Of a DNA stretch of 64,000 nucleotides, positions 3,632 through 63,864 are shown piece after piece. The position numbers were made by a program, and so were the translations under genes. The notes below the pieces were generated by a model, which was given only the letters and a program-made list of their open reading frames with translations, searched no databases and was not told the origin of the DNA. Numbering within the stretch: position 1 is the first letter of the stretch; each line of letters starts with the position of its first letter. The DNA is from Candidatus Woesearchaeota archaeon (lineage in GTDB: Archaea > Nanobdellota > Nanobdellia > Woesearchaeales > SKIA01), in assembly GCA_043771635.1 (NCBI GenBank), contig JAYVHA010000007.1:2233-66232 (forward strand), read 5' to 3'.

Positions 3632-5102
<1,471 letters not shown>

Positions 5103-39156: not shown

Positions 39157-39726
39157 TTATAATACGCTTCTTCGCTTTAATTCAAAAAAGCATTTTGCAC
39201 ACATTGCTACATCAACTTTTGCATCGTGAGCACCAGAAAATTCACTATCAAACAATTTTTTGTGTAGTTCTTTGAGCGCCGGCCATTTAAATCCTCGATC
39301 GGTTTTTATCGCACAGTATTCAGTGGTTGTTAACATCGTGCATGTTCTAATTGAGTCCCCGAACGGAAATAATAATTCACAACGTATAAACTCTGCGTGA
39401 ATTACTGGTTCATCAAAACTCAAATTATGGGCAATAATGTTCTTAGACTTCTTTACATCTTCTGAAAACATAATAAGTGCTTCTTTTAACAAAATACCTT
39501 CTTGCAGGGCTCTTTCAGTAGTAACGCCATGAATGCGAGAAGCCTCCAAAGGTATAGTATAACCCTCTGGATAAATTATGAAATCCTCTTGTTTGACTAA
39601 GGAGCCCTCACCATCATATAGTTGCCAAGCAAGCTGAACAACCCGAGGCCAGTTTTGCAAATCAGATGGAAGACCTTTGTAGTTTTTTGGTAAACCGGTA
39701 GTTTCAGTGTCGAAAATGAGAAACAT
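39157..39726 (-). CDS. DEDDh 3'-5' exonuclease (DnaQ/RNase T-like)
   Basis: Exo I FDTETTGLP, Exo II HNLSFDEPVI, Exo III HDAKVDVAMCAKCF. Confidence 0.8.
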   Translation of the reverse strand: MFLIFDTETTGLPKNYKGLPSDLQNWPRVVQLAWQLYDGEGSLVKQEDFIIYPEGYTIPLEASRIHGVTTERALQEGILLKEALIMFSEDVKKSKNIIAHNLSFDEPVIHAEFIRCELLFPFGDSIRTCTMLTTTEYCAIKTDRGFKWPALKELHKKLFDSEFSGAHDAKVDVAMCAKCFFELKRRSVL

Positions 39727-39851
39727 TTATTCGGGACTCATTTTTGATTTATATTACTTAACTGAACCCGGCAAGTTAATTACGATCGCACGGAGAACGG
39801 CTCCCGACGCATAATGAGTAAGTATTTAACTCTCAAAACGACAGGCAGAGC

Positions 39852-50100: not shown

Positions 50101-51218
50101 TTGGTTTAGCGAATACTACCAACGTGTCAGCGTACTTGTATGACGACGAAGGAATTAGAATCAGAAAAATAGAATACAACACCACATCAGGTGCCATTCT
50201 TTCTAGAACATATTACCCTGACGATGACTTTGTACGCGTTTACAACGCAAGCAATCAAACCACTGACGAGGTTTACTATCGTGTCGACGGAACATTGCTC
50301 GCACAAATGAAAGGGAACAACTTGACCTTTATTCATACTAACCATTTGGGAACGCCTGACCTCGTCACGAGCACAACCGGTAGCACGATCGAGACGACAA
50401 AACTCGACCCTTACGGAAACGACATAACAGGGGGGAACAGTCGCTATGTTTTTACTGGCCATGAACGTGATACAGAAACTGGGCTAGATTACATGAAGGC
50501 AAGGCACTATAGTCCAGACCTCGCGATGTTTGTACAACCGGATAGTTTACTAGAAGATATATACTCTCCGCAAAAATTGAATAGATATGCGTATGTTTCA
50601 AACAGGCCGACGATTTATACAGATCCGACCGGGCAGTACAGTTGTGATGCAACGGGAGGATGCATTAGTTTCTGTGTGGGGTTCATATGTCCAATAATGA
50701 ATGCAGTTCCAGATGAAGGAGACAATCCTGACGTAGGTTTATACAACGGCAAAAATGTTCGTTTTGCTAACCAGGAACAAAATGCCTTTATGAGTGCTGT
50801 TATTTCGTTAACAACTATGGGAGGAGTTAGATCGTTTGGATTAGCCTCTAGTACTAAAGTTACCGGCAATAATGCTGTGAATTACGCAGATCTTCCTGAG
50901 GATGTCCAAAACACCCTGGCCAAAGTCAAATCCGGAGAAAAGTTACCCTATGCCAAGGATGGAACAATATATCAAAATAGAAACGAAGCTCTTCCAAAAC
51001 AAGCCGCTAATTATTACCGCGAGTATACAGTCCAAGCAGACCCTGCAAAAGGTAGAGGGACCAATAGGTTGGTAGTTGGAAATAATGGAGAGACTTACTA
51101 CACAACAAACCATTATGGCTCATTCAAAAGGGTCACCTCTGAGCCTGACCGCACTAATTTTAATCAAGCGTATAAAATGCTACAGAGAGCAGTAAATAGA
51201 ATTGGAGGCAATAAATGA
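47103..51218 (+). CDS. secreted LamG x3 - RHS-repeat - RHS core - barnase-family RNase toxin (polymorphic toxin)
   Basis: Signal MFLAVMFVALALAIPSALA. Three ConA/LamG-like domains. YD repeats. RHS core RYVFTGHERDTETGLDYMKARHYSPDLAMFVQPDS..YVSNRPTIYTDPTGQ. C-terminus GTIYQNRNEALPKQ..YREYTVQ..GRGTNRLVV..YYTTNHYGSFKRV aligns to barnase (GDIFSNREGKLPG..WREADI..RNSDRILY..YKTTDHYQTFTKI). Confidence 0.85.
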   Translation: MNRMFLAVMFVALALAIPSALADNITNETNNSIPILLPNGTINTTAPVIILVPTENVVEQPAVTISEPNPKPADEPQVIEALELVVAPTEPRDAPTRDPATVDAPIPYCGHKSCAKEILTTVRVSETAFGRQEILQLEKDPNYPCTIEEGGFVVCEPITPQGEAALRAAYDLSEGIPTTDYRQPVYEGYSSQLSTGIVRGVRIGSYKRSTINPTVRQRFEINASEPGVFVVGFASNVFVVSDFNYGTCENCSIGTTQVTLENYHSTDAAQALSWRFSGNGLDSSGNANTATFGGAAYVNNTFADGFAFNDANKLSAPDAASLDISNMTLSFWVRFKSLTENQTLIYRYTSTNGYLCEFAKYDTTGIQCYTRNSTAGGAAWVQTGGASETQNPDYEINKWYHIVLTYNLSSGNLSIYQDGTLKHSKIATNHSMSSTASFKWGADYFDAFNGTVDEINLYSRTFSATEVTSLYNSGLYLVNPSYGNYTSMIDLGQSSTVSSVSWTGSGNLTIAARTGDYAKPGLTDTGLFGYWPLNQSLLCKDANSRYNGTASSGVICGNVSGPFVLENATWFDSDTDKITLPLATNFTNWSVQVWVRSDGTCVDGQNIFAKGWDYRIYTTSSCGITIVSANSSGSNKSMSSVCSISDGRWHSLAYVYNDTAKTAYAYCDGVQKSSVTQQGTATSSTNFTIGGGTSGLTFRGSVAQVSLWNKTLAPADLVAWNTWSSTLTSGNDPGLTDGRYVQYSAILRTNDTRNTSMLTSVSVGTSSSCSLSNGGYNVTLMNGASTGSGYATLDGTDDRIDTDLNVSSVLNNGSFTLAMWVKSDVDSGQRAFWSADSSGTDRFYLRQSDISSNQVVLGASSWNPVLTGYGALSNWTHYVLIINGTSGLFYRNGLNVANTTGITKNYPGKYLRFGANGDTLAETHDGNIDGINLYNRALTLTEVSQLYTNITVTTGQILSIEFNTCSATTSLTYDPNGNMVYDGTYTYEYDSFNRLTKIWLGLANTTNVSAYLYDDEGIRIRKIEYNTTSGAILSRTYYPDDDFVRVYNASNQTTDEVYYRVDGTLLAQMKGNNLTFIHTNHLGTPDLVTSTTGSTIETTKLDPYGNDITGGNSRYVFTGHERDTETGLDYMKARHYSPDLAMFVQPDSLLEDIYSPQKLNRYAYVSNRPTIYTDPTGQYSCDATGGCISFCVGFICPIMNAVPDEGDNPDVGLYNGKNVRFANQEQNAFMSAVISLTTMGGVRSFGLASSTKVTGNNAVNYADLPEDVQNTLAKVKSGEKLPYAKDGTIYQNRNEALPKQAANYYREYTVQADPAKGRGTNRLVVGNNGETYYTTNHYGSFKRVTSEPDRTNFNQAYKMLQRAVNRIGGNK
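48495..50530 (+). repeat. ~2-kb direct repeat copy 1 (inside main RHS gene), partner at 51609-53650
   Basis: acagaagtaacatccctgtacaactcgggcttatacctagtaaacccatcatacgg.. recurs at 51609 with ~95% identity. Identity decays after the conserved RHS core. Confidence 0.85.
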
Positions 51219-51541
51219 CAAAGGAAAAAACACTGACTAAGAATTTGAACGCAGACATCCTTGTTAATTTGTCCAATGTGGCAAGTAAAAAAAAAGTGTT
51301 CGAGATATTTAGTTCAGAACTATTTTTTCCAGAGTATTTCGGACACAACTGGGATGCGCTATATGACTGCTTAACAGACCTTGTTTGGCTTCCAAAAGTT
51401 AAAACAACTATTACAGTCTGTCTTCCAAAAAGGCTTTCTAACAATGATAAACTCGTTTTAGTAAGATTGCTTCAGGATGTAGACGCCTACTGGGAGCAGG
51501 AAAAGAGACATATTAGGGTCAAAATTGGTAATAACAATTAG
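51215..51541 (+). CDS. barstar-family immunity protein
   Basis: ELFFPEYFGHNWDALYDCLTDLVWLP versus barstar [26 protein letters not shown]. ATGA overlap with the toxin stop. Confidence 0.8.
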   Translation: MTKEKTLTKNLNADILVNLSNVASKKKVFEIFSSELFFPEYFGHNWDALYDCLTDLVWLPKVKTTITVCLPKRLSNNDKLVLVRLLQDVDAYWEQEKRHIRVKIGNNN

Positions 51542-54269
51542 GTCATTAAATTCTGTATTAGAAGCCTGCATAGAGGGAGTTGCACAGTACAATCGCACTA
51601 GATCTATGACAGAAGTAACATCCCTATACAACTCAGGCTTATACCTAGTAAACCCATCATACGGAAACTACACAAGCATGATAGACCTCGGCCAATCATC
51701 GACTGTTTCAAGTGTGTCTTGGACAGGCAGCGGAAACCTAACAATAGCAGCAAGAACCGGAGACTACGCAAAACCAGGATTAACCGATACAGGACTATTC
51801 GGGTACTGGCCACTAAACCAAACACTGCTTTGTAAGGATGCGAACAGCCGTTATAACGGCACAAATTCAAGTGGGGTCATATACGGCAATGTTACAGGCC
51901 CATTTGTTCTAGAGAACGCAACGTGGTTTGACAGTGACACTGACAAAATAACTCTACCACTCGCGACAAACTTCACAAACTGGTCTGTGCAAGTATGGGT
52001 AAGAAGCGATGGCACATGTGTCGACGGACAAAACATATTCGCAAAAGGATGGGACTACAGAATATACACAACAGGTTCGTGTGGCATAACCATGGTATCA
52101 GCAAACAGTAGCGGATCAAACAAAACAATGGCATCAGTGTGCTCAATTTCAGACGGCCGATGGCACTCACTTGCATACGTATACAACGACACAGCAAAGA
52201 CCGCGTACGCGTACTGCGACGGAGTACAAAAGTCTAGCGTTACTCAGCAAGGCACAGCAACCTCATCAACTAACTTCACAATCGGCGGAGGAACATCCGG
52301 ACTAACCTTCAGAGGATCAGTTGCGCAAGTATCGTTATGGAACAAGACACTAGCACCGGCAGATCTAGTAGCATGGAACACGTGGAGCAGCACACTAACA
52401 TCAGGAAACGACCCTTTACTTTCTGACGGAAGATATGTGCAATACAGCGCAATACTGCGCACGAACGACACTCGCAATACTTCGATGCTGACCAGCGTAA
52501 GCGTAGGAACAAGCAGCTCCTGCTCACTATCAAACGGAGGATACAACGTAACCCTAATGAACGGCGCATCAACAGGAAACGGCTACGCAACACTAGACGG
52601 CGTTGACGACCGCATATCAACAGACATGAATGTTAGTTCCGCTCTTAGCAACGGAAGCTTCACGATATCTATGTGGGCAAAAAGCGACGCAGACGCTGGC
52701 CAACGAACGTTCTGGAGCGCAGACACAAACGGCTCCGATAGATTCTACTTCCGTCAATCAGACGTAAGTTTAAACCAAGTTGTACTGGGCATGAGCAGTT
52801 GGAATACAGTATTGACAGGCTACGGGGCTTTGAGTAACTGGACGCACTATGTGCTAGTAATTAGCGGCACGAGCGGAACGTTGTATCGCAATGGCGTAAA
52901 TATCGCAAACATGAGCGGCATAACAAAGAACTATCCTGGAAAATACTTACAACTAGGAGCAAACGCTGAATGGTACGCAGAAACGATGGACGGGAACATG
53001 GATCGAGTTGCAATATACACTCGCGCATTAAACAACACAGAAGTAGCTCAACTATACGCAAATACGAGCGTGAGCAGCGGACGCATATTCAACTTAGATT
53101 TCGACCCTTGCAACGGCAGCACTAGCCTAACATACGATGCCAACGGAAACATGGTTTACGACGGTACGTTCACTTACGAATATGATTCATTCAATAGATT
53201 GACCAAAATCTGGCTTGGATTAGCAAATACTACCAACGTGTCGGCGCACTTGTATGACGACGAAGGAATTAGAATCAGAAAAATAGAATACAACACCACA
53301 TCAGGCGCCGTTCTTTCTAGAACATACTACCCAGACGATGACTTTGTACGCGTTTACAACGCGAGCAATCAAACCACAGACGAAGTTTACTATCGTGTCG
53401 ACGGAACATTACTTGCTCAAATGAGAGGCAACAACCTAACGTACATCCATCCAAACCATCTAGGTACACCTGATTTGGTGACAAACAGTTCTGGAGGAAC
53501 CGTAGAGGTCACAAAACTGGACCCCTACGGAAATGACATAACTGGTGGAAATGGCAGATATGCTTTCACTGGCCATGAACGAGACACAGAAACTGGGCTA
53601 GATTACATGAAGGCAAGGCACTATAGCGCAGATCTTGCGATGTTCGTGCAGCCAGATTCGATTAAAGAGAATGTGTACGATCCACAAACACTAAATCCAT
53701 ACGGCTACGTTAGAAATAATCCGACTAACAAAGTTGACCCGACCGGCATGTTTAGCTCTCAACTCCTCGGACTAGGAGTCTTTATGGCAAGTGCTAATAC
53801 TGGTGCTGCGCTATACGGAGGTCCGTTCGGAATTGGTTTTGCAGCAATAGAAGGCCCAATAACCATTTCAGTTATTGCGACTTCATTCATTATTGATGAA
53901 GATGAGACTGATGAGTATGCTCGTGCTTTTGCTGCAGGTTCGATTTCGGCAGAATTCTTGGTCACTGCCAAGGACATATATAATACGGGATCTGTTTCAG
54001 GAGTGCCATTCACAGGACCAGCAGGCCAAGCGTTATACGGCACATATGGCAATAATAGACGGCAGACCTTCCTGAAAGAAGCACAAGCACGCCAGGACTC
54101 TCAACGAGACAAATCTATCGAGAGGGAGTACAAAGGCAAATCCATGAGTACTCCTAGTGGCAAGGAGGCAAAAATAGATAAAGTGCTGCGAGGTAATAGT
54201 GGTAAGATCTGGGTTATTAGTGAACCCTATAAAAAAAATTCTAATGGCAGTAGTAGGGACAAGAAATGA
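51525..54269 (+). CDS. orphan RHS C-terminal cassette (LamG x2 - YD repeats - RHS core - alternative C-terminal toxin CT2); may lack an authentic start
   Basis: From nt 51609 it is ~95% identical to 48495 onward of the main gene. RHS core RYAFTGHERDTETGLDYMKARHYSADLAMFVQPDS..NPTNKVDPTGMF. Divergent tail with Gly-rich hydrophobic segment GLGVFMASANTGAALYGGPFGIGFAAIEGPITISVIATSFII. Confidence 0.6.
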   Translation: MVITIRSLNSVLEACIEGVAQYNRTRSMTEVTSLYNSGLYLVNPSYGNYTSMIDLGQSSTVSSVSWTGSGNLTIAARTGDYAKPGLTDTGLFGYWPLNQTLLCKDANSRYNGTNSSGVIYGNVTGPFVLENATWFDSDTDKITLPLATNFTNWSVQVWVRSDGTCVDGQNIFAKGWDYRIYTTGSCGITMVSANSSGSNKTMASVCSISDGRWHSLAYVYNDTAKTAYAYCDGVQKSSVTQQGTATSSTNFTIGGGTSGLTFRGSVAQVSLWNKTLAPADLVAWNTWSSTLTSGNDPLLSDGRYVQYSAILRTNDTRNTSMLTSVSVGTSSSCSLSNGGYNVTLMNGASTGNGYATLDGVDDRISTDMNVSSALSNGSFTISMWAKSDADAGQRTFWSADTNGSDRFYFRQSDVSLNQVVLGMSSWNTVLTGYGALSNWTHYVLVISGTSGTLYRNGVNIANMSGITKNYPGKYLQLGANAEWYAETMDGNMDRVAIYTRALNNTEVAQLYANTSVSSGRIFNLDFDPCNGSTSLTYDANGNMVYDGTFTYEYDSFNRLTKIWLGLANTTNVSAHLYDDEGIRIRKIEYNTTSGAVLSRTYYPDDDFVRVYNASNQTTDEVYYRVDGTLLAQMRGNNLTYIHPNHLGTPDLVTNSSGGTVEVTKLDPYGNDITGGNGRYAFTGHERDTETGLDYMKARHYSADLAMFVQPDSIKENVYDPQTLNPYGYVRNNPTNKVDPTGMFSSQLLGLGVFMASANTGAALYGGPFGIGFAAIEGPITISVIATSFIIDEDETDEYARAFAAGSISAEFLVTAKDIYNTGSVSGVPFTGPAGQALYGTYGNNRRQTFLKEAQARQDSQRDKSIEREYKGKSMSTPSGKEAKIDKVLRGNSGKIWVISEPYKKNSNGSSRDKK
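51609..53650 (+). repeat. ~2-kb direct repeat copy 2 (orphan RHS cassette)
   Basis: See copy 1. Confidence 0.85.
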
Positions 54270-54556
54270 ATTCAAAGCAATTTCCCGTGCGTGTGCGACC
54301 AACTCAGTTAATTGCCGGGGCAGTATTCTTTTTCGGCTTTTTGGGACTATTGTTTGCCTTCAAGTATCTGCCACTCCAATCGGCTATCGGATTGACAATG
54401 GTCTACGTAGTGATATTTGCTTTGGTTGTGGCTAACATCAAGAAGTTAATTTTATACGTTGAAAGCGGACTTCTTTATAGACTTCTGGTTTGGTTATTGA
54501 GCCTAATCTTCTTTATACTCTTCATCTTGCAAGTTATTAAGTTACTTTCTAATTAA
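54266..54556 (+). CDS. small 3-TM membrane protein, candidate immunity protein for orphan toxin CT2
   Basis: ATGA overlap with the orphan cassette stop. 96 aa, three hydrophobic helices. Confidence 0.5.
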   Translation: MNSKQFPVRVRPTQLIAGAVFFFGFLGLLFAFKYLPLQSAIGLTMVYVVIFALVVANIKKLILYVESGLLYRLLVWLLSLIFFILFILQVIKLLSN

Positions 54557-55002: not shown

Positions 55003-55188
55003 ATGTTATGTATGGTTAAAACGCGTCTTGTGGGTTTTCGCGTGAGTGAGGAGCAGTATTTTTTGCTTCGTTTGTGGGCGCGACAGGATGGCTTGGGGGT
55101 TTCTAGCTACGTCAGAATGCGTTTTTTTAGGAAGGAGCGGGCTGCGGGCAAGGAAATGGCCTCTGAGGGCGAGAAAAATGGATATTGA
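55003..55188 (+). CDS. ribbon-helix-helix (CopG/Arc-like) DNA-binding protein
   Basis: TRLVGFRVSEEQYFLLRLWARQDGLGVSSYVR resembles the RHH beta-strand plus two helices. Confidence 0.45.
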   Translation: MLCMVKTRLVGFRVSEEQYFLLRLWARQDGLGVSSYVRMRFFRKERAAGKEMASEGEKNGY

Positions 55189-55351
55189 GTTGCTTCGTGG
55201 TGAGCGGCGTTGCTTTTACTGCACAAATACTGTATGGAACGCCATGTGCGCTTACACCGAGGATTGTATGTCCCGGTCTGAATTCATCCGTGTTGCGATA
55301 GAGGAGAAGCTTCTTCGTGATTCGGAGAATTTACGGGAAAAACGCAAATGA
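55178..55351 (+). CDS. ribbon-helix-helix (CopG-like) DNA-binding protein
   Basis: MSRSEFIRVAIEEKLLRD RHH motif. Start taken at internal ATG 55178 of ORF 55046-55351. Overlaps the previous RHH gene by 11 nt. Confidence 0.45.
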   Translation: MDIELLRGERRCFYCTNTVWNAMCAYTEDCMSRSEFIRVAIEEKLLRDSENLREKRK

Positions 55352-55477
55352 GCATATAAAACTCATTAGCTTAGTTGAAATCACAATGAAGGCTATAGTT
55401 GAACTTTCCAATGAAGAATATGAGACGCTTGCAAAGAATTTCGACGAAGGAACCGGTACACGTATTCGAATGTTTAT

Positions 55478-56269
55478 TCATCTAAATTGAGAGTTAGTAC
55501 GTAGCTGCTTACTCCGCCTTCTAATAGTTACTTCGACGACTCCAGTGTAGCGTGTAAACAGTCTCTGTGCGCGGTATTCGCCTGTTGTTTGCATCGCGAC
55601 GTACAGGCTTGTTGCTGCGAGCGTACTTGGCTTAAGGCCGTTACTGGCATTCATTCCTGCGTATTGTATTGCTAGAGTTACTGTGTTGCTTGGCAGCCGT
55701 AGTCTTGTTGCGAACCGCGGTATGAGGTCTATTGCTTCTATCGTGCCCGTTCTTATTTTTAGAGCTCTTTGAATGTGTTTTGCAGCCTTAAGCAATTCAG
55801 CTTTAGGTATTTCTGTGTGCGCAGTAATTTCTAGCGCTGTTTGCGGCGTTCCGGCGTCGATGCATGCAATGTATACTGCTGCGTATGCAAATGCCTGATT
55901 GCTTCTGCCGATTGTTATTTCTTTATTGGTTACTTCGAGGAACATTCTTTTTGCTTCTGCCGCTACGGTTTTAGGTGCTTTAATTCTTGATACTAGAAGG
56001 TCTATTTCGCTGCATGTTGCTCGGAAGTTTTTTTGTTTGGTTGTTAATAGCCATGATTCTGTTAGGTGTCTTCCGTTTGTGTTGAAGGTGCCTGCTTGCG
56101 CTAAGGCTGGATGTGATGCGTGGCTGCCTTCGGATAACAAGGTACTTTGTTCTATTCTGTTGTCTTCAAGCACTAACCCGCAGCCTAGGCACACTAGCTC
56201 TCCTTGGGATTCTCTAAATCTCTTTTCCGCGCATTCAGAGCACCGCATTAGAATCTTCGCCTCCTTCAT
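55478..56269 (-). CDS. tfb: transcription initiation factor TFB (TFIIB) homologue, short form
   Basis: N-terminal Zn ribbon CSECAEKRF..GELVCLGCGLVLED. Cyclin-fold region NQAFAYAAVYIACIDAGTPQTALEIT. Confidence 0.7.
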   Translation of the reverse strand: MKEAKILMRCSECAEKRFRESQGELVCLGCGLVLEDNRIEQSTLLSEGSHASHPALAQAGTFNTNGRHLTESWLLTTKQKNFRATCSEIDLLVSRIKAPKTVAAEAKRMFLEVTNKEITIGRSNQAFAYAAVYIACIDAGTPQTALEITAHTEIPKAELLKAAKHIQRALKIRTGTIEAIDLIPRFATRLRLPSNTVTLAIQYAGMNASNGLKPSTLAATSLYVAMQTTGEYRAQRLFTRYTGVVEVTIRRRSKQLRTNSQFR

Positions 56270-56507
56270 CGGTAAAGTATAGTAGTACTGGCATTGTCTT
56301 CTGTTCGGAGAGTTTTTCGAGCCTGCTTAGCACTTGTTCTTTGCTTAGGCATAGCTCCATAACGTATTCTACTTTTGAGCTGCTTGAGCTGAATAGCTGT
56401 CGCACGGGTAATTTTAGATCTATTCTTCTTCGGCTATCGTTGTAGAGTACTTTCCCTGTTATGGTTACGATTTTGTTTGTTGTGCCGAATAGTATTTTTT
56501 CTCCCAT
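56235..56507 (-). CDS. hypothetical protein (90 aa)
   Basis: ORF lying between the ATPase and TFB genes in the same orientation. Confidence 0.3.
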   Translation of the reverse strand: MGEKILFGTTNKIVTITGKVLYNDSRRRIDLKLPVRQLFSSSSSKVEYVMELCLSKEQVLSRLEKLSEQKTMPVLLYFTDEGGEDSNAVL

Positions 56508-56617
56508 CCCGTATACATATACTGTATTTCATAATTTATCTACTTTCGCGTGATAATTTCAATGTATTTCCGGCGTTTCCGGATTACCGACGGCGCCACC
56601 CCTAAATCCAGGCCTAA

Positions 56618-59617
56618 TCACTCTTTTACGGCGTGCACAGGCCGTGCGCCACCCCTAATTCTTGCAGGAGATCTATGGGAGAACAGATTAGAAAGTAGGC
56701 CTGGTACTTCGTTGCGTACGAGTATTGGTCGCTCGAGGGTACGCTCGTAGGCTCGTTTGAACTCTGCGTCTGTCAATACTATGTGTACTTCGTCGTACTG
56801 CTCGTCTAGGTCAGCGAATTTTTGTTGTATGTTTCTTCTGTTCTTTTTGTATTGAGATCCTGTTTCTACTTCTATCGCTATATTTCGTCCTCTTGTGTCC
56901 TTGAATACCACGTCTGCGTCGCTTACAATGTTTACTTCTACTTCTTGCGTGTGTTGCTTGATGTGTTCTTTGATGTTTTGTACTAGGAACGTGTGCGCTA
57001 TTGTCTCTACTTTGTTTGTTTTTACCCAGCATTCTTCTTGCCTTGGCTTTCCTATAGGCACGAACATTCCTTTCACGTATCCGTTGTGTACTAGGTAGTT
57101 TTTGTCTGCGAAGCTCATTCCTGTGCCGTATATGAGTCCTTTCTCTGTGTTTACGGTTATGTCTACTTCTTTTTTTTCATCTGGTTTTGTTATTGTCTTT
57201 GTTTTTTCGTTCGGGTTTGTTGTAATTAATTCGTGTTCTTTCTCTGAGGCTATTACGCTTAGTTCCTGGTGGTCGTTGTCGAGTATGAGAATTCCTTTTC
57301 CTTGTGTTGCTGTGAGTAGGTAGTTCTTTTCTGGTGTGCTAAGGTGGAATGTTCGCACTACGCTGTCTATTATGGCTGGTTTTTGTCTTAGGAGAAATGT
57401 GTAGCTGCTGTTCGCTAGTACCGCGTGTCCTGCGTTGCTGTTCACTAGGTCTGCCACGTCTTGTGTTATTAGGAGTAGTCCCATGTTGAATTTTCTACAG
57501 GTTTTTACTATTTCGAATAGGTATCCTGCTTCTTCTGTGTGGCTTAGAAGGCTCCATGCTTCGTCCACGACAAGCATTTTCTTGCCTGGACGGGTCTTCA
57601 TGTTCATGTATGCGTAGTCAAGAATTAGGAACATTACTATTGGCTTGACTTGTTTTGGCATGTCGCCTATGTTGAAGCATACGAAATTGTTTTCGTAGTT
57701 GATGTTTGTTTGTCTGTTAAGAAAGTTGTATACTCCGTCAGTGTACATGTAGAGTCTGTTGATGAGTGCTCTGTACGTTATTTTCTCTGATTGCGCGGCT
57801 TTCCTGTCCATTTCGACGAGTGTTTTGTATAAGTCTTTGAGAATGGGTGGTTTGTTCTTTTTTCCGCGGTCAGCTGTTATGCCTTTTCTTGCGTACGTCT
57901 CGTTTACTGCCTTGTCGAGTATGCTCTTTTGAACTTCGCTTAGCTCCCCGAACATTATTCTGAACAAGTCCATTAGTGCCAGTCGTTTCTCGATATAGTC
58001 GTGTCCCATTAAATCCAAGGGGTTAATCATCGTCTTGCTGGTGCGACTTATGCTGATCTGCTCTCCGTTGCATGCTTGCACGAGCCCCGTATACTCTCCT
58101 TGGGGGTCGATGACGGTTACGCTTGTTCCATTGAGTATTTGGCGGCTTACAAGGAGCTTTGTGAAGTAGCTTTTCCCTGCGCCACTCGTTGCCAATACTA
58201 TTCCGTTTGCGTTGTTTAGGTTGAATATGTCTTTGATGTACGGCACGTTATTTTTGTTGAGACCTAGAAGGGTTCCGCTTAACTCCATTGTTAGGAACGG
58301 GCTTGTGAATGGGAAGAACGCGCTTAAGGCGCCGGTTGTAACGTTTCTTCGCTCTCCCAGGTAGTTTTTGCCGAACGGCATCATTGACTTGTATGCCGCA
58401 AGCTGCCGAAAGAGCGGCGCTTTCGGGATAATCATTATGCTGTGCAGCTCTGCTTCGACTTTTCTTGTGAGCAGGTTAAGCTCTTCTTTCGTGTTGGCTT
58501 TGCAGGCTATGAGAAGGCTTACGTTGAATAGTTTCTCTTCGCCCTTTTGAAGGGCTTCAAGGACTTTGAGTGTGTCTCGGTACTTAATTTCAAGGCTCGG
58601 GTTAATACTCTTTCTCTGCTCTTCAGAGTACAGGTCGGCTCTTTGCTTTTGGAGTTCTTGGTTTAGAATAAGCATGGTTGTTTCTATGCTGAAAGGCTCT
58701 ACGTGAATGCTTATGTCATAGTCTTCGTTACTGCTAATTATTTTATCTAGGAACCCGCTTTCCACATTTCTAGGATACCCTGTCGCGACCACTACGCGCA
58801 CAAGCTTCCCGTCAACGTCCAGGTAATCAGCGTGATCCTTGATTCTTCCCGGCGCTACAAGGGAATGCACTCCTTTTACGCTGCTAGGGTGCTCTGACGG
58901 TTTAGTATTGTAGGATTGCGCCAAGAACTCTAGCAACGCATTCTGCCCTAGCCGCTCTACTTGCAAGCCCATGCTTTCAAGCCTATCTTGACATAGCTTA
59001 GATTGAATACTGAGATCTGCTCTTTTTGGTATTATGACGAAAAACTCTCTGTTTCTTTGCGTTGCTGTTTTGGCATTTATGTACATTGAAAACTCTTCGA
59101 ACCGTTGTTTGTCTTTAGTTCGCTCCTCTAAGCTCGCGAGGTATTTGTCAAGGTTCAGAGTTTGCGTGTTTACTAGTATTTGTACTGGAAAGTCAAGGCT
59201 GTTCAGGAACTTTTGGAAACCAGCTATAATGCCTTCCTTCTCCGCATCAGTTTTTATGCCGAAGTTGATAGTGGCAACTCTTAGAACAGCGACGCTATCC
59301 TCAGCGATTATGGTGTCGTTTACGACTTCTTTAATGGGAAAAGCCTGGCTCATGTGCTTTGTACCGAGAAGTACTTCTCTGTGGCGTATGTAACCTATTG
59401 CGTTCCTTACCCATGACCACATGTTAAAGAAAATAAACAGTACGCCAAGCACTATCGGCACAACTGCCACACCCATCTTAACGTACAGCGATAGATTACT
59501 TGCGAGCGCGGCAAGTACGAAGAACCCGAAGAATGCAGCCCAGCCAAGCTGCGTAAACGTCAGGCCAAAAACTATTCGCTCTTTGTGCTGAAGCTGCTGC
59601 GGAATTTCGTAACTCAT
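56618..59617 (-). CDS. VirB4/TrbE/CedB-like (HerA-FtsK superfamily) DNA-transfer ATPase with N-terminal TM segments and C-terminal PD-(D/E)xK-like nuclease-like domain
   Basis: N-terminal TM helices. Walker A IVLATSGAGKSYF. Walker B KKMLVVDEAWSLL. ..LLLITQDVADL. C-terminal ~200 aa with DADVVFKD..RNIAIEVETGSQYKK (D..E.K-like). Confidence 0.75.
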   Translation of the reverse strand: MSYEIPQQLQHKERIVFGLTFTQLGWAAFFGFFVLAALASNLSLYVKMGVAVVPIVLGVLFIFFNMWSWVRNAIGYIRHREVLLGTKHMSQAFPIKEVVNDTIIAEDSVAVLRVATINFGIKTDAEKEGIIAGFQKFLNSLDFPVQILVNTQTLNLDKYLASLEERTKDKQRFEEFSMYINAKTATQRNREFFVIIPKRADLSIQSKLCQDRLESMGLQVERLGQNALLEFLAQSYNTKPSEHPSSVKGVHSLVAPGRIKDHADYLDVDGKLVRVVVATGYPRNVESGFLDKIISSNEDYDISIHVEPFSIETTMLILNQELQKQRADLYSEEQRKSINPSLEIKYRDTLKVLEALQKGEEKLFNVSLLIACKANTKEELNLLTRKVEAELHSIMIIPKAPLFRQLAAYKSMMPFGKNYLGERRNVTTGALSAFFPFTSPFLTMELSGTLLGLNKNNVPYIKDIFNLNNANGIVLATSGAGKSYFTKLLVSRQILNGTSVTVIDPQGEYTGLVQACNGEQISISRTSKTMINPLDLMGHDYIEKRLALMDLFRIMFGELSEVQKSILDKAVNETYARKGITADRGKKNKPPILKDLYKTLVEMDRKAAQSEKITYRALINRLYMYTDGVYNFLNRQTNINYENNFVCFNIGDMPKQVKPIVMFLILDYAYMNMKTRPGKKMLVVDEAWSLLSHTEEAGYLFEIVKTCRKFNMGLLLITQDVADLVNSNAGHAVLANSSYTFLLRQKPAIIDSVVRTFHLSTPEKNYLLTATQGKGILILDNDHQELSVIASEKEHELITTNPNEKTKTITKPDEKKEVDITVNTEKGLIYGTGMSFADKNYLVHNGYVKGMFVPIGKPRQEECWVKTNKVETIAHTFLVQNIKEHIKQHTQEVEVNIVSDADVVFKDTRGRNIAIEVETGSQYKKNRRNIQQKFADLDEQYDEVHIVLTDAEFKRAYERTLERPILVRNEVPGLLSNLFSHRSPARIRGGARPVHAVKE

Positions 59618-61638
59618 TAGATTACTCCGCCGAGATACTTCGCAGCTTGAGCGACGCTTCCTCCCATGTCGCCTAGAGCCGACTTAGTGATGATGTGCTT
59701 GCCGAGAACCAAGAATAGCAAGTTAACGAGCAGAAAGCACGTTATCATGATAACTATCTTGAAATTTTGAAACAATTCAACTTGTACGAGCATACTGCTT
59801 GCAAGAATGATAATGGAAGCTAGAAACGTACTGAAAATTGCCATGCCAAGCAAGTTAAGAATGAGCTTACCATAACTGCGGAGCGGAGGCACGAAGTAGC
59901 AGAAAATACCAACAGGAGCAAATATGACACCCGCAGCAACCACCAAGTACCGAAGCGTAAGAACCACGATCGTGGCGAGCAAAACCACGGCGTAGGTGAG
60001 AACGAGCAAGAACTCAAGAGCAACATTCACCACGTTATCTGCAGTTAACTGAAAGAACGCAGGATCAACTTGCACTAGCACCGTACTTGCGAGAGCGGAA
60101 CCGAGCTCAAGCATAAGACCGTACAAGTAAAAGCTAGCTTGAACGAAAATAATTAGCAAAATAGCATTCTTTAGCGACTCCTTAGCAAGCTCGCGCTTAA
60201 CTACATCATGACCACTCGTCATAAACTGATAACCAGCGTACAAAAACAAGAAACCATAAAGAATACTCAGCAACGCTACAATTACTTGCCACACGCCTTG
60301 AAACAATGCGATACTTGGCGGATTCTCGATGAGACTGCGCGTAAAGTCAAGCAAAGGCTGCAAAGGAGCATTCAAAGCGCCAATCAGGAACTCGAAGAAC
60401 TTCTGGGGAATACACGTCGCAAGATTGGTTATACCACAATCATCCGCTCGGACACCAGGAAGAGCTGCAATAGCTGCCAGAACGACGCCGAACAGCGGCG
60501 GGAACTTCTTACGAGCAAATCGTATCAAAACAAGTATCAAGAGAATGAGAAGAAGCAGCTTGAAACCGAACTTAAGATCGGACGAGAATCTAGTTTGTTT
60601 GAACGGCGTGAAAATAGCACCAGTAATATTTCTCGCGCAAGACAAAGTCTTAGTGTCGAAGAAGTCGCTAAGAACGAGGTTGCAAGCGCTCGAGTCCTTA
60701 ACCGTTACCGACCCATTACTGTAAAACAGGTTCGTAGGATACTCTTGACGCTGCCTCGTGGCTTGCAATGCAATAAAGTCGTACGGTGCCTTTGTGAAAT
60801 TAGCAGAGTAAACGAACTCACCAACAAGTAGATGGCTTTGGTTAAAATCTAAACGGACATACGTCAGATTGTCTTTGGTAAGCTCTCCGCCAACACTATC
60901 TGCGTATTGCGTGGTGAGAATGAAAGATGCGTTAGGTGAATGATTGTATGCCGCGACAGTTTGGTAATCCTGAAGAGTCAGGTTATCTAATTTGTACGTA
61001 GTGAGACTGAATGAACAACTATAGCAAGTGCTTTCGCACGCTAACCCGCAACACCGGGCAGTTGTACGGTACGTATCAACTTTAGTTGTAGCTGACAATT
61101 CTAAATTTGCTCGTATAACTGAATCTACAGGCACGGAGAAATTACTTATTTTATTTGAACCAACCGTTTCACCGTTTAGTACAATACTATAATTCTCTTG
61201 CGTATCCTCTAGCGAATATAGTATTTTGCAAATGCTACCTGTGACGCGGTTTGAATTTCTATAATCTGGCGGCAGTTCAATGGAGTAACCGTACTCGCTC
61301 CGCGCAGTTACTATTGCGGGAACATACGTGCGCCCCTCAAATAACATACTCGGCTGAATGGAGAGCAGTACAAGCCAAGCGTCTTTAATAACACCCTCAG
61401 AAGTATTTTGATAACCTTCTGGGGGACCGGTAACGATGATTCCATCATTGTACGACGCAACAAACTCGTGATCTGGCGAGCTAGTGTTCGTATAGATAAG
61501 GTTAGCAATCGCGCCAGGCGATGTTACGCTCAGCGCAAGACACGCCTCGTAACTGGGCGAAGCGAATAGCGAACAATCAAAAGCGTAAACTCCACCAACA
61601 AGCGACGACAAAAATAGAAGAAAAATAAATGATTTCAT
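59617..61638 (-). CDS. VirB6/TrbL/CedA-like polytopic membrane protein with N-terminal glycosylated Cys-rich extracellular domain
   Basis: Signal MKSFIFLLFLSSLVGGVYA. ~340-aa sequon-rich ectodomain with CCGLACESTCYSC. 6-7 TM helices in the C-terminal half. TAATG overlap with the ATPase start. Confidence 0.6.
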   Translation of the reverse strand: MKSFIFLLFLSSLVGGVYAFDCSLFASPSYEACLALSVTSPGAIANLIYTNTSSPDHEFVASYNDGIIVTGPPEGYQNTSEGVIKDAWLVLLSIQPSMLFEGRTYVPAIVTARSEYGYSIELPPDYRNSNRVTGSICKILYSLEDTQENYSIVLNGETVGSNKISNFSVPVDSVIRANLELSATTKVDTYRTTARCCGLACESTCYSCSFSLTTYKLDNLTLQDYQTVAAYNHSPNASFILTTQYADSVGGELTKDNLTYVRLDFNQSHLLVGEFVYSANFTKAPYDFIALQATRQRQEYPTNLFYSNGSVTVKDSSACNLVLSDFFDTKTLSCARNITGAIFTPFKQTRFSSDLKFGFKLLLLILLILVLIRFARKKFPPLFGVVLAAIAALPGVRADDCGITNLATCIPQKFFEFLIGALNAPLQPLLDFTRSLIENPPSIALFQGVWQVIVALLSILYGFLFLYAGYQFMTSGHDVVKRELAKESLKNAILLIIFVQASFYLYGLMLELGSALASTVLVQVDPAFFQLTADNVVNVALEFLLVLTYAVVLLATIVVLTLRYLVVAAGVIFAPVGIFCYFVPPLRSYGKLILNLLGMAIFSTFLASIIILASSMLVQVELFQNFKIVIMITCFLLVNLLFLVLGKHIITKSALGDMGGSVAQAAKYLGGVI

Positions 61639-61964
61639 GCGACCAAGTACTGGATAACATAAGGAGCTATCCAGATCACCCCTAGGCCAACAATAACATA
61701 GCCAGCCATCTTCTTAGCCTGAGAACGCGCAGCCTGATCATCACCACTAGTGATAAAAGTAACACCAGCAAAGACCAAGAACAAAACCGCAATTACGGAA
61801 GCAGCGTACTTAATGAAATTATAGACCTTCATAACAGGCGACAAAATCAAATCGAAAGTAGCCTGATCCTGCGCACTAATAACCTGATTATAATCAACAG
61901 CAAAAGCAGCAGGCAACAAAACAAATAATACAGCCAAAATACCATACAATAACTTCTTCATCAT
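61635..61964 (-). CDS. VirB2/TrbC-like pilin candidate (signal peptide + two TM helices)
   Basis: 109 aa. MMKKLLYGILAVLFVLLPAAFA signal, then two hydrophobic helices. Strong SD AAGGAGGTGG before ATG. ATGA overlap with the downstream gene. Confidence 0.5.
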   Translation of the reverse strand: MMKKLLYGILAVLFVLLPAAFAVDYNQVISAQDQATFDLILSPVMKVYNFIKYAASVIAVLFLVFAGVTFITSGDDQAARSQAKKMAGYVIVGLGVIWIAPYVIQYLVA

Positions 61965-62426
61965 TCCACCTCCTTAAGCTCCATATGAGCTATGGCATCC
62001 AAAAGCCGCAAATATGCCTCGACAGAACCATACTTCCAAGTCAGAAAAGCAGCACAAGAAAAGCAAAAAGCAACATCAGAACCAGCAAGCCGTCCACCAC
62101 ACAAAGCACATTCAGCTACAAACACCATACAAACCTAAGAATTGCGATGACTAAAGTAAGGAACTCAGAGAATGTATAACAAAGCCGGCACTTATCTAGA
62201 GCTAACTCGCTGCCAACGGCGACTGCATTTTTTACATGTATAATCTGTTCGAAAATCCGTTACAGCAACAGGTCTAGATTCTGTTCGAACAACAGACCAG
62301 TTAGAATGCCGCGACTATGTTCAAATCATAACCATTCTAACTCGGAGAATGTAATACGCATGACTGTAACATACCTGTCGCATACCCGACAAGCTTTAAT
62401 TCGCATAACACTTTTAGGTTAATGTC

Positions 62427-63095: not shown

Positions 63096-63809
63096 CTACA
63101 CATCTATACGTCTTTGAGCTGCCTTGACGAATTCGGGGCTGAGTTCGCACCCTAGGAAGTCTCTTCCGCTGATTTTGGCCGCTACAGCTGTACTACCAAT
63201 CCCTATAAACGGGTCAAGAACCACATCGCCCTCTTGGCTACTTGTCTCAATAAGTCTCTTGAGAACGCTCAATGGTTTTTGAGTGGGGTGAAATGCCATT
63301 CCGTTTTCTTGCTTTAATCTTTCTCTGCCTTGAAGCGCCGGTGTAATGAAAATGTTTTTCATGGCGGGTTGACTTTCGAAATTGAATGTTATTTTGTTGA
63401 GTTTTGTTTTGTCGTTTATTGCGTATATGATGTATTCGTTTGCGAATACCCAGTTCGTTTTACTTAATCGAGGCGGAGGGTTCGTCTTACTCCATACGAG
63501 AAGGTTTCTGAAGAACCAGTTTTCTTGGAATATTTTCATATATACTGGGATTTGTTCTGTGCTGCAGAACACGTAGATTTGCCCGTTTGGTTTTAAGACT
63601 CGTTTGATTTCGCGCATTACTGGCACCGGATCAAAGTTGTAGTCCCACTCACCAAAATCTTTACGGATTACTCGTCCCTGAAATAATATGTTGGTTTTGC
63701 GCGATACGTTGTATGGTGGATCCGTCACGACGAGATCTACACAATTGTCAGGAAGTGTTTTCAAGTACTCCAGACAATCCATGCAAGCGATCGTGTTAAG
63801 TGCGAACAT
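63096..63809 (-). CDS. beta-class N6-adenine/N4-cytosine DNA methyltransferase
   Basis: Motif IV DLVVTDPPYNV precedes motif I VVLDPFIGIGSTAVAA (beta-class order). Confidence 0.8.
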   Translation of the reverse strand: MFALNTIACMDCLEYLKTLPDNCVDLVVTDPPYNVSRKTNILFQGRVIRKDFGEWDYNFDPVPVMREIKRVLKPNGQIYVFCSTEQIPVYMKIFQENWFFRNLLVWSKTNPPPRLSKTNWVFANEYIIYAINDKTKLNKITFNFESQPAMKNIFITPALQGRERLKQENGMAFHPTQKPLSVLKRLIETSSQEGDVVLDPFIGIGSTAVAAKISGRDFLGCELSPEFVKAAQRRIDV

Positions 63810-63841: not shown

Positions 63842-63864
63842 GAACTCAGAGAATGTATAACACT
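63842..63864 (-). promoter_or_regulatory. conserved promoter/operator motif upstream of methyltransferase gene (GTTATACA TATA + ACTCnGAGT palindrome)
   Basis: Minus strand reads gtgTTATACAttctCTGAGTTcttgatatagg..ATG. 46 nt from the TATA end to the ATG, identical spacing to repeat copies B and C. Related copies at 62161-62182 and 62338-62360. Confidence 0.45.

Follow-up and report, generated by a model that had tools for sequence, protein, structure and literature searches.

A minimal type IV secretion module with a restriction-endonuclease-fold domain fused to VirB4 on a tRNA-integrated island of a DPANN archaeon

Background

Because no relaxase has ever been recognized in archaeal conjugative elements, it is still debated how these elements make their DNA ready for transfer (PMC9905601; PMC12857230). 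The cargo of the relaxase-less type IV secretion systems (T4SSs) of ultrasmall symbionts (CPR, DPANN) likewise awaits identification. We analyzed a locus in a 64-kb window (the whole stretch of DNA examined) from a Woesearchaeota-type archaeon, in which an earlier note had seen a conjugation- or Ced-like DNA-transfer module. Our analysis supports this interpretation of the module, with revisions to several of its parts. A search of open-access papers and bioRxiv found no prior description of DPANN VirB4-nuclease systems.

A translationally coupled operon with a pilin and a VirB6-like protein

The ORFs reported earlier are all present at the positions given. Its minus-strand genes for a pilin (61635-61964; 109 aa), a membrane protein (59617-61638; 673 aa) and the ATPase VirB4 (56618-59617; 999 aa) are indeed coupled as proposed, with an ATGA overlap joining the first two and a TAATG overlap joining the membrane protein and VirB4. 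The earlier note lacked a fourth coupled gene, the first of the operon (61961-62128, minus strand), which encodes a 55-aa Zn-ribbon protein, overlaps the pilin start by ATGA and has homologs that immediately precede the pilin gene in some 20 related loci.

The three hydrophobic segments of the first-described protein (aa 5-23, 54-72 and 86-104) agree with the signal peptide and two transmembrane (TM) helices ascribed to it. It matches PF18895 (46.5 bits, cut-off 26.6) and PF04956 (29.2 bits, cut-off 27.9), both above the gathering score, and is thus a T4SS pilin of the VirB2/TrbC type. No Ced model matches either the pilin or the 673-aa protein. Of 83 loci, 58 have the pilin gene upstream of virB4.

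The 673-aa protein combines a signal peptide, a Cys-rich ectodomain with an Ig/FN3/PKD-like β-sandwich (aa 23-350; 60589-61572, minus strand) and a polytopic membrane domain that begins with a pilin-like segment (aa 355-673; 59620-60576, minus strand). The architecture described earlier, a glycosylated Cys-rich ectodomain followed by 6-7 TM helices, is largely borne out: all 10 cysteines and 12 N-x-S/T sequons fall within aa 1-350, and about 7 TM helices lie in aa 357-650. Glycosylation of the ectodomain is probable. Its faint resemblance to rotavirus VP8* in a profile search (E 0.19) was not significant. As to the proposed VirB6/TrbL/CedA likeness, the VirB6 part stands on fold, topology and gene position: the membrane domain has the VirB6 fold and at least 5 TM helices, its N-terminal part is pilin-related, and the gene is immediately upstream of virB4 in most loci. 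The pilin relationship is seen in a sub-threshold T4SS_pilin match at aa 449-494 and in BLAST clustering, which merges this protein with pilins; the same relation of membrane protein to pilin has been reported for CedA/CedA1 and VirB6/VirB2 (PMC9905601). No TrbL/VirB6 family of Pfam or NCBIfam matches the protein or 8 of its homologs, and a profile search against PDB sequences retrieved no match. PF19590 is listed in precomputed annotations for 4 of 17 homologs; our local search did not reproduce it.

A VirB4 ATPase with a VirB3-like membrane hairpin

The ATPase begins with a VirB3/PrgI-like membrane hairpin (aa 5-64; 59426-59605, minus strand), whose two TM helices span aa 21-39 and 46-64. 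Its PrgI match scores 21.2 bits, under the cut-off of 27; the same HMM matches 35 of 39 VirB4 family members at E <= 0.01, with a best E of 3e-6. The motor core (aa 111-798; 57224-59287, minus strand) matches NF045971 conju_CD1110 over aa 111-781 with 330.7 bits (cut-off 325), the Mycoplasma ICE model VirB4_plasma with E 5e-104 and PF19044 with 92.2 bits (cut-off 25.8). Pfam matches in the core are to the TraG P-loop, DUF87, AAA_10 and TraC_F_IV families. The Walker A (GAGKS) and Walker B (VVDEAW) motifs noticed earlier are at aa 479 and aa 683, and 39 homologs show no variation at G479, G481, K482, S483, D685, E686 or W688.

What separates VirB4 from the FtsK/HerA housekeeping ATPases is a TraC/VirB4-type N-terminal domain. 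This domain is present: PF11130 (TraC_F_IV) scores 28.6 bits against a cut-off of 28.1 and is matched in 34 of 39 homologs. Together with the NF045971 score, it upholds the earlier assignment to VirB4 rather than to a housekeeping clade. The precomputed PF26593 label, which we considered for the C-terminal extension and rejected, likewise refers to this N-terminal "TraC-like" domain and is carried by all VirB4 homologs. The PHROGs label "terminase large subunit" was set aside as a generic P-loop/VirB4-like label, the NCBIfam and Pfam matches being specific for VirB4.

A restriction-endonuclease-fold domain at the C-terminus of VirB4

Beyond the motor, aa 824-985 (56663-57148, minus strand) comprise a small β-α-β-β unit followed by a second domain. 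In the predicted structure the last ~180 aa adopt a confident restriction-endonuclease-like fold (pLDDT 88), with the α-β-β-β-α-β core of the PD-(D/E)xK superfamily. The earlier proposal of a PD-(D/E)xK nuclease or Hjc-like domain is therefore sustained for the fold and fails for Hjc, since neither specific similarity to that Holliday-junction resolvase nor its E...D...ExK active site was found. The "D..E.K"-like motif that had been read in this region is not the conserved one, and the canonical D...(D/E)-x-K motif is lacking. The invariant residues are instead H875, D902, E916, E918, G920, K933, Y957 and R968, giving the motif D902...E916-V-E918...K933 with Glu at the Lys position and K933 on the next helix. 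The three acidic residues occupy the canonical metal-binding positions (at the start of β2 and in β3), and this triad, H875, K933 and Y957 are invariant among sequences only 30-50% identical. The motif is BamHI-like; in BamHI the D...E-x-E variant is catalytic.

Foldseek searches with the domain recover BamHI and OkrAI, and its core is common also to Can2/Card1/VC1899, Hef/XPF, NucS and Hjc. Like PD-(D/E)xK nucleases in general, it has an Asp at the start of β2 and acidic residues in β3. It differs from them in the displaced Lys, in the preceding β-α-β-β unit, in being joined to a T4SS motor or a TM anchor, and in sequence: neither Pfam (E <= 10) nor a PDB phmmer search with the C-terminal 200 aa returned a match. 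Profile matches in PDB to ubiquitin, extending over 31-35 residues with E 0.03, were rejected as chance.

The fusion was rightly called unusual for a VirB4-like ATPase. It is fixed in hundreds of Woese- and Pacearchaeota VirB4s, and none of more than 5000 VirB4s from plasmids has it. The domain also occurs as an independent protein with its own TM anchor. Four stand-alone proteins of this kind (P0139, P0148, P0143 and P0166) lie on short contigs without T4SS genes and were not accepted as an independent link to T4SSs.

Element-encoded regulators and a shared promoter motif

Between virB4 and the TFB gene we found a conserved 90-aa gene (orf90; 56235-56507, minus strand) that was absent from the earlier note and is always paired with the TFB gene; the pair follows virB4 in about 20 loci. 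Its product has no Pfam or PDB match even in profile searches, and an AbrB-like N-terminus, considered for it, was dropped as unsupported. The TFB itself (55478-56269, minus strand; 263 aa) has a Zn-ribbon (PF08271, 32.4 bits, cut-off 29) and two cyclin repeats (PF00382 in two stretches, 74.9 bits, cut-off 23.6) with a shortened B-reader/linker. It reaches 118.6 bits against NF001658, below the equivalog cut-off of 384, with aa 77-257 aligned to model positions 119-303 and a ribbon-to-core linker about 40 residues shorter than in the model. It is hence a divergent paralogue, in keeping with the short TFB noted downstream in the same orientation. The purine-rich coding strand attributed to the module is a feature of VirB4, orf90 and TFB (purine fraction 0.58-0.60, against about 0.51 in core genes), whereas the pilin and membrane protein genes are pyrimidine-rich (0.44-0.45).

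On the plus strand are two ribbon-helix-helix (RHH) genes overlapping by 11 nt. The first (55003-55188; 58-61 aa) encodes a NikA/MbpA-like protein, just below threshold for PF21983 (26.1 bits, cut-off 27; E 9.5e-6). The second gene had been taken as a 101-aa ORF. Its homologs, 64-80 aa long and found in 9 other loci, align only to aa 44-97 of that ORF, so that the gene is better placed at 55178-55351, encoding a 57-aa CopG-like protein with a weak RHH_1 match. These homologs often adjoin an integrase or TFB gene, and the pair of NikA-like and RHH genes recurs in locus L034.

A 21-nt promoter-like motif, TGTTATACATTCTCTGAGTTC (62162-62182, minus strand), precedes the Zn-ribbon/pilin operon, its 14-nt core starting 34 nt upstream of the ATG. 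An identical 21-mer (63843-63863, minus strand) stands at the same distance from the ATG of a DNA methyltransferase gene. The sequence ACATTCTCYGAGTT has three exact copies, all inside the island described below and all on the minus strand, a count reached in 0 of 100 shuffles. The motif is also found upstream of the Zn-ribbon gene or virB4 in two further loci (L013 and L054). An element TFB acting with this common motif would exemplify a mobile element that brings its own basal transcription factor.

An integrative island at tRNA-Glu

The earlier suggestion to look beyond the window end for an integrase or att sites proved fruitful. The module lies in an island of about 27.9 kb (38858-66745), which extends past the end of the 64-kb window and has a 67-nt direct repeat at its two edges, with the 3' end of tRNA-Glu forming part of the repeat. 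The left copy (38791-38857) is identical at 53 of 67 positions to the right one (66746-66812, in the extension) and contains the exact 11-nt tRNA-Glu 3' end. The local alignment scores 64; the next-best unrelated score is 29 and the background 14 +/- 2.6. An exact-repeat search (>= 13-14 nt) had found no att sites, and the repeat emerged only after the tRNA was located and mismatches were allowed. Just past the window end, 128 bp from tRNA-Glu, is a tyrosine recombinase homolog of a family whose member in locus L038 passes the Phage_integrase cut-off (29.7 vs 27.1). The island thus has both a site-specific recombinase and flanking direct repeats at the integration site, as expected of an integrative conjugative element (ICE). 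Its GC content is 0.435, between flanks of 0.473 (left) and 0.475 (right). The empty-site junction pattern had 0 matches in metagenome contigs, as did a control flank, the flank of this organism being absent from that collection. In 14 other tRNA-bearing loci no convincing distal att repeat was found within 10-kb flanks; a 22-nt repeat in L029 was discarded as an att candidate, as it lies inside hsdM with no integrase present.

Neither the island nor the recurrent neighbor clusters of 80 loci contain a relaxase or type IV coupling protein; the sub-threshold NikA-like accessory protein is all that turned up. The cargo includes the N4/N6 DNA methyltransferase mentioned above (63096-63809, minus strand; CcrM-like, E 2.5e-45), with a member of the same cluster near the module in 22 loci, and, between 39157 and 54556, an RNase_T-like exonuclease, an OLD-family ATPase-TOPRIM protein and three RHS/YD polymorphic toxins with immunity genes. 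Related modules occupy islands that carry an integrase and sit at a variety of tRNAs; some genomes have several copies, and the cargo varies. Such islands show that DPANN archaea host a widespread ICE-like family shuttling defense and toxin genes.

Proposed function and alternatives

Having identified the parts, found the fusion to be fixed across the clade and no relaxase or coupling ATPase to be encoded in the island or among recurrent neighbors, and delimited the island together with its integrase and tRNA, we propose, with about even confidence, that the module is the DNA-transfer part of an integrative conjugation-like DPANN element in which a VirB4-tethered nuclease processes the DNA. 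This ~27.9-kb element, integrated at the tRNA-Glu 3' end in the chromosome of a Woesearchaeota-type archaeon, would build a minimal archaeal T4SS from one translationally coupled operon. The operon would supply a Zn-ribbon protein, a VirB2-type pilin, a VirB6-like channel with a large Ig-like ectodomain and a single ATPase uniting a VirB3-like hairpin, the VirB4 motor and the restriction-endonuclease-fold domain. The element-encoded TFB with its 90-aa partner, the RHH pair and the common 21-nt promoter motif would form the control module. The pilin and ectodomain may make cell contact, and VirB6 and a VirB3-VirB4 hexamer may form the membrane conduit. At the cytoplasmic mouth of the VirB4 ring, the tethered nuclease would nick or cut DNA to yield the transfer substrate, taking over the DNA-processing role that relaxase and coupling protein have in bacterial conjugation, and the element would spread from cell to cell.

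A bolder formulation, which we advance tentatively, is that the VirB4-tethered nuclease is the missing DNA-processing activity of archaeal conjugation, or else belongs to a T4SS running in reverse for "feeding", TFB-driven in either case. In the conjugation version a single protein combining VirB3 anchor, VirB4 motor and nuclease would stand in for relaxase, coupling protein and VirB3, whereas in the feeding version DPANN episymbionts would pull in and cut up foreign DNA through the T4SS; in both, the element-encoded TFB would recognize the element's own promoter motif.

The main rival to a conjugation-like element, which we consider possible but somewhat unlikely, is a DNA-import apparatus, Ced/Ted- or ComB-like, carried by the island as useful cargo. 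The pilus would contact another cell or free DNA, VirB4 would pull DNA inward, and the fused nuclease would, for example, degrade one strand or trim ends of the incoming DNA, which would then be used in recombination or supply nucleotides to an organism whose own biosynthesis is poor. Some systems without VirD4 are importers, ComB being one, and the module too is without a coupling ATPase or relaxase. Its component set (only VirB2-, VirB6- and VirB4-like) equals the Ced/Ted minimum, and Ced is under the TFB paralogue TFB3 just as a TFB paralogue is linked to the module here (PMC9905601). Moreover, the related relaxase-less T4SSs of Patescibacteria with VirB2-like pilins are essential for epibiotic growth and suspected of taking up host macromolecules, and the occurrence of the nuclease domain as an independent membrane-anchored protein also suits import. 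However, the module has not settled at one chromosomal location as a domesticated system; its integrase-bearing islands at many tRNAs, multiple copies and variable cargo fit the self-interest of an element better, and no Ced or Ted HMM match is meaningful (CedD, 26.8 bits against a cut-off of 600).

Compatible with either direction of transport, but unlikely, is a C-terminal domain that is a non-catalytic DNA-binding or oligomerization module with a nuclease-derived fold, as in ERCC1/FAAP24. Such a domain would recruit DNA to VirB4 in the manner of a coupling protein and leave the cutting to another factor. The invariant acidic triad at the metal-binding positions with H875, K933 and Y957, a typical active-site pattern, argues against it, as do the Foldseek recovery of BamHI and OkrAI and the catalytic D...ExE of BamHI.

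Improbable on present evidence is a host-interaction secretion system of an episymbiont that delivers proteins or draws material out of the host. Attachment to the host cell would be through the pilus and Ig-like ectodomain, the neighboring RHS toxins could be among the proteins delivered, and the nuclease domain would serve either for "feeding", by degrading DNA or RNA, or as an anchor. The DPANN origin, the large adhesin-like ectodomain and the three RHS/YD toxins in the same island are in keeping with this, as are the giant surface proteins of nanohaloarchaea, which contain VirB4-like domains and for which an action on hosts has been proposed (PMC10266531). But RHS genes are not conserved neighbors (3 of 83 loci), the module occurs patchily and on islands instead of being universal, and a nuclease predicted to be cytoplasmic, C-terminal to a cytoplasmic ATPase, cannot act in a host.

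A defense system, in which a membrane-anchored ATPase-nuclease of a defense island would detect and destroy invading DNA, with the pilin and VirB6-like genes as mere leftovers, is very improbable: ATPase-nuclease fusions are common in defense and the neighbors are rich in restriction-modification, Gabija-like, OLD and RT genes, but no PADLOC-type architecture is implied, most loci conserve the pilin, the VirB6-like gene and virB4 together and in translational coupling, all three with their family signatures kept, and the defense genes vary while the T4SS frame is constant, and so look like cargo.

A nuclease-fold domain fused to the T4SS motor, whose acidic triad is kept intact across hundreds of DPANN lineages, is a testable candidate for the missing DNA-processing step, and may explain how archaeal systems of this kind handle DNA without the nicking enzyme usual in bacteria. 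If true, the VirB4-tethered nuclease would define a relaxase-independent start of DNA transfer. The compact four-gene machine is well suited to structural and biochemical work.

Comparison with known systems

Among the closest systems is MPF_FATA, the conjugative T4SS class of Firmicutes and Mollicutes ICEs and plasmids (CD1110/Mbov_0397 VirB4; PrgI, PrgH). The module shares its VirB4 family, has a minimal gene set of monoderm type and, like an ICE, comes with an integrase; the N-terminus of its VirB4 is probably PrgI-like. The best plasmid relatives of this VirB4 are Firmicutes VirB4s beside PrgI genes. Identity is no higher than 25-33%. Unlike MPF_FATA, the module has a VirB3-like hairpin fused to VirB4, a C-terminal nuclease-fold domain that no plasmid VirB4 has, and a VirB2-type pilin, normally absent from that class; it lacks VirD4, relaxase, VirB1 and VirB8, and its regulators are archaeal (TFB).

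The T4SSs of Patescibacteria (CPR) likewise belong to ultrasmall episymbionts, usually have no relaxase nearby and combine an MPF_FATA-derived VirB4 with VirB2-like pilins (PF18895/PF04956) and VirB6 (Quinonero-Coronel et al. 2025, PMC12102498). No VirB3-VirB4 fusion is reported in that study, which makes no mention of a nuclease. The CPR systems are near-universal, chromosomal and often near the origin (PMC12102498), whereas the archaeal module is island-borne with integrase and tRNA, and the nuclease fusion is fixed in it.

The Ced (Sulfolobales) and Ted (Thermoproteales) importers have the same trio of VirB2-, VirB6- and VirB4-like proteins, a VirB6-like channel whose N-terminus resembles a pilin, no relaxase and, for Ced, control by TFB3 (Beltran et al. 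2023, PMC9905601). The module is not a member of the Ced family, the sub-cut-off CedD score being the only match. Both importers have been domesticated on the chromosome and have no integrase, and their ATPase has no fused nuclease; HerA-NurA nuclease/helicase partners are merely hypothesized for them (PMC9905601).

Archaeal conjugative plasmids (the pNOB8 family and pT33-3) are, like the module, DNA-transfer elements without a recognizable relaxase. Where these plasmids have a VirB4-like as well as a VirD4-like ATPase and lack a recognizable pilin, the module has one ATPase, a clear VirB2 pilin and the nuclease fusion.

Architecture of the operon

On the minus strand, ORF calls delineate a 109-aa pilin (61635-61964), a 673-aa VirB6-like membrane protein (59617-61638), a 999-aa VirB4 ATPase (56618-59617) and, downstream, a 263-aa TFB (55478-56269), all lying where an earlier note on the bare sequence had placed them, and the ATGA and TAATG overlaps that it reported between the operon genes are present in the sequence. 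A fourth coupled gene codes for a 55-aa Zn-ribbon protein (61961-62128), which has an ATGA overlap with the pilin gene, and a 90-aa gene (orf90, 56235-56507) lies between virB4 and the TFB gene, overlapping the start of the latter. Simple hydropathy reproduces the topologies proposed for the membrane proteins, namely a signal peptide and two helices in the 109-aa protein, and a signal peptide, an ectodomain and about seven TM helices in the 673-aa protein, whose N-x-S/T sequons (12 of 12) and 10 Cys all fall within the ectodomain. The VirB2-like nature of the 109-aa protein is borne out by Pfam, as it exceeds the gathering scores of both T4SS_pilin (46.5 vs 26.6) and TrbC/VirB2 (29.2 vs 27.9). 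The 673-aa protein shows a weak T4SS_pilin match at the start of its TM domain and is grouped with the pilins by BLAST clustering; the same channel-pilin relation is seen in CedA/CedA1 and VirB6/VirB2 (Beltran et al., PMC9905601). Related loci often encode the ectodomain (~450 aa) and the VirB6-like part (~275 aa) as two distinct genes. The purine-rich coding strand attributed to the module holds for virB4, orf90 and the TFB gene (0.58-0.60 vs ~0.51 in core genes) but not for the two membrane proteins, which are pyrimidine-rich (0.44-0.45), and the bias looks like a consequence of amino-acid composition rather than a signal.

The VirB4 ATPase and its C-terminal nuclease-fold domain

The ATPase scores 330.7 against a cut-off of 325 for the VirB4-like CD1110 family (NCBIfam) and, over aa 17-798, matches the Mycoplasma-ICE VirB4 model (E 5e-104), with further matches to the TraG P-loop, DUF87, AAA_10 and TraC_F_IV. 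Together these matches agree with the VirB4 type originally proposed and place the protein among the conjugation-type VirB4s of monoderms (MPF_FATA), not with the housekeeping FtsK/HerA ATPases. Its N-terminus contains two TM helices by simple hydropathy, and aa 1-64 give a PrgI (VirB3) match that is below threshold and is seen again in 35 of the 39 members of the family, a recurrence which argues for a VirB3-VirB4 fusion.

Residues ~800-999 match no known family in sequence searches. This region is conserved family-wide despite only 30-50% sequence identity, with H875, D902 (consensus KPDI), A914, E916, E918, G920, K933, Y957 and R968 invariant. A confident structural model (pLDDT 87.7, pTM 0.78) comprises a small beta-alpha-beta-beta unit and, after it, an alpha-beta-beta-beta-alpha-beta arrangement, in which the second core strand begins at D902, the third carries E916 and E918, and K933 falls in the next helix. 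The model thus lends moderate support to the nuclease fold suggested in the earlier note, but the motif is D...E-x-E rather than D...E-x-K. This is the BamHI arrangement (D94, E111, E113), and the domain is probably an active nuclease; it is less likely that it serves as a non-catalytic DNA-binding module.

A profile of the domain retrieves 674 cluster representatives among 1.84 billion. In addition to VirB4 proteins, it finds complete proteins of 285-400 aa in which 2-4 N-terminal TM helices and a charged (K/E-rich) linker precede the domain (P0139, P0140, P0143, P0144, P0148, P0156, P0165 and P0166, in loci L084-L089), and ~175-aa stand-alone forms comprising the small unit and the nuclease fold (P0146, P0151, P0154 and P0160). 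No T4SS genes were seen near these non-VirB4 carriers on their short contigs; an integrase lies near the membrane-anchored protein of L089.

A putative island integrated at a tRNA gene

The host DNA is an archaeal chromosome, with an rRNA operon at 1-5102 and flanking genes for ProRS, an archaeal SAM synthetase and glycosyltransferases; the named ProRS homologues are from Woesearchaeota or Nanoarchaeota. The LSU rRNA gene (1-3093) contains a group I catalytic intron on the minus strand at 797-1121 (Rfam RF00028, 55.3 bits vs a gathering score of 50).

The source contig continues for 5.6 kb past the window end, where the earlier note had suggested looking for an integrase or att sites. In order, there follow a gene for a 445-aa protein adjoining the N4/N6 DNA methyltransferase (MTase) gene (63096-63809), a 439/470-aa protein whose neighbour cluster has a member above the Phage_integrase cut-off, and, 128 bp from the latter, a tRNA-Glu gene. 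A 67-nt direct repeat (53/67 identical) is found at 38791-38857 and ext 66746-66812 (window numbering continued along the contig) and includes an exact match to the terminal 11 nt (3' end) of tRNA-Glu; the two copies align with a score of 64, vs 29 for the next-best unrelated pair and a background of 14 +/- 2.6. Between the copies lies a putative element of ~27.9 kb (38858-66745), with a GC content of 0.435 vs 0.473/0.475 in the flanks. Excision is predicted to join ext 66745 to 38858, leaving the empty site ...GACGGGTTAAC-TGCTCCAGCCG-GGATTCGAACC...

Of the 21 tRNA genes in 52 related loci, 13 have a tyrosine recombinase no more than 183 bp away, and the tRNA-integrase-T4SS order prevails; the tRNAs concerned are Glu, Gln, Asp, Ile, Leu, Gly and Cys. 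In 14 other tRNA-bearing loci, the 10-kb flanks yielded no convincing distal att repeat. The conserved frame of the related loci is (Zn-ribbon)-pilin-VirB6 ... VirB4 ... orf90-TFB ... RHH ... integrase, and variable RM, Gabija-like and other genes sit between its parts. Neither this island nor the recurrent neighbours of related loci include a coupling ATPase (T4CP) or relaxase.

The island additionally codes for an RNase_T-like exonuclease, an OLD-family ATPase-TOPRIM protein, a PycTM-like protein, the MTase, and three RHS/YD toxins with immunity genes. The exonuclease and the OLD-family AAA_15/TOPRIM protein (Gabija GajA-like/PARIS-like) occupy the left end (39157-41603). The RHS/YD-shell polymorphic toxins (1686, 1371 and 914 aa) stand in tandem at 42046-54556; the second has a C-terminal barnase-type Ribonuclease domain and is followed by a Barstar immunity gene, and an ATGA overlap couples the third to a 96-aa ORF with 3 TM helices. 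These toxins are not conserved as T4SS neighbours among related loci. The 445-aa protein (L001 4394-5731, or 63887-65224 in window numbering, the last 38 codons being inside the window) has no family match; its C-terminus (DILAYD...VLVISCKRS) resembles a restriction-endonuclease motif, and it may form a type II RM system with the MTase. Elsewhere, the virB6-virB4 gap holds defence or other cargo, often on the opposite strand (L004, L007, L015, L028, L043, L060), such as the Gabija-like OLD-family ATPase-TOPRIM and UvrD helicase pair at L015 4740-8349, and virB4 and orf90-TFB flank a second hotspot of insertion (L009, L022, L028, L043).

Control genes and a shared promoter-like motif

The TFB combines a Zn-ribbon with two cyclin repeats, its ribbon-to-core linker falling ~40 residues short of that in the canonical model, and is always preceded by orf90. 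Of the two RHH genes, one is NikA/MbpA-like (26.1 bits vs a cut-off of 27) and the other, at 55178-55351, encodes a 57-aa CopG-like protein; the two are found together again in L034, and the second is also present in 9 other loci. An identical 21-mer, TGTTATACATTCTCTGAGTTC, containing a TATA-like TTATAC, occurs upstream of the Zn-ribbon/pilin operon (62162-62182) and of the MTase gene (63843-63863); in both cases the 14-nt core begins 34 nt from the ATG. The third exact copy of the core, ACATTCTCYGAGTT, is at 62339-62352; all three copies are inside the island, a count reached in 0/100 shuffles. The core also occurs in other elements (L013 6481 and 9954, L054 4384), upstream of the Zn-ribbon gene or virB4. 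It is possibly a target of the element TFB or the RHH proteins, and one may speculate that this TFB reads the longer promoter-like motif. Upstream of the pilin operon, the divergent intergenic region also contains an inverted repeat with perfect 10-nt arms, AGTTAGAATG - 24 nt - CATTCTAACT (62299-62342), overlapping the distal motif copy.

Phyletic distribution

A full-length search recovered 802 VirB4 homologues, nearly all ~1000 aa long and covering 96-100% of the query, those with names being from Woesearchaeota, Nanoarchaeota or Nanoarchaeia. Scanning one genome per species yielded 347 confirmed loci, the best 80 of which are all from DPANN MAGs, a few mislabelled. Every complete VirB4 of the surveyed loci possesses the nuclease domain, which is covered by 0/5000 of the best plasmid VirB4 matches; these are Firmicutes proteins with 25-33% identity, ending near residue 800-830. 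Some genomes have 2-3 VirB4 copies: the CAYFMJ01 genome has three on different contigs (L027/L032/L077), and JAHWHZ010000001.1 (L019/L030) has two modules separated by ~20 kb that contain tRNA-Ile and an integrase, possibly a case of tandem element accretion. N-terminal VirB4 fragments of 127-136 aa (L074 9947-10357, with tRNA-Ser directly after it, and L068 10001-10384) point to module copies that have decayed or been interrupted.

Functional implications and relation to known systems

These observations reveal a minimal VirB2/VirB6/VirB3-4 machine with a fixed nuclease-fold fusion, lacking relaxase and T4CP, in a tRNA-integrated, recombinase-bearing island. Such a machine would move DNA across the envelope, with the VirB4 ring anchoring the nuclease domain on its cytoplasmic side, where the domain might cut or nick the transported DNA. 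Because the module accompanies integrases at numerous tRNA sites, exists in more than one copy in some genomes and encloses changing cargo, we favor self-transfer of the element by conjugation-like export, the nuclease acting in place of a relaxase, a proposal to which we would give an even chance. DNA import, as in Ced/Ted or ComB, is the main rival; the single-ATPase, relaxase-less design is common to those systems, and Ced is controlled by a TFB paralogue (PMC9905601), but given the linkage to integrases and cargo we consider import less probable. A role in host interaction, as proposed for CPR and nanohaloarchaeal systems, is less likely, as is a role of the module in defence.

In open-access papers and bioRxiv we found no published description of this DPANN system, of its nuclease fusion or of the elements; some of the VirB4 homologues are already annotated as VirB4 by NCBI. 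In a 2025 study of Patescibacteria T4SS (PMC12102498), no VirB3-VirB4 fusions are reported and nucleases go unmentioned. A T4SS review of December 2025 states that no relaxase is known, and its archaeal coverage consists of the Sulfolobus plasmids and pT33-3 only.
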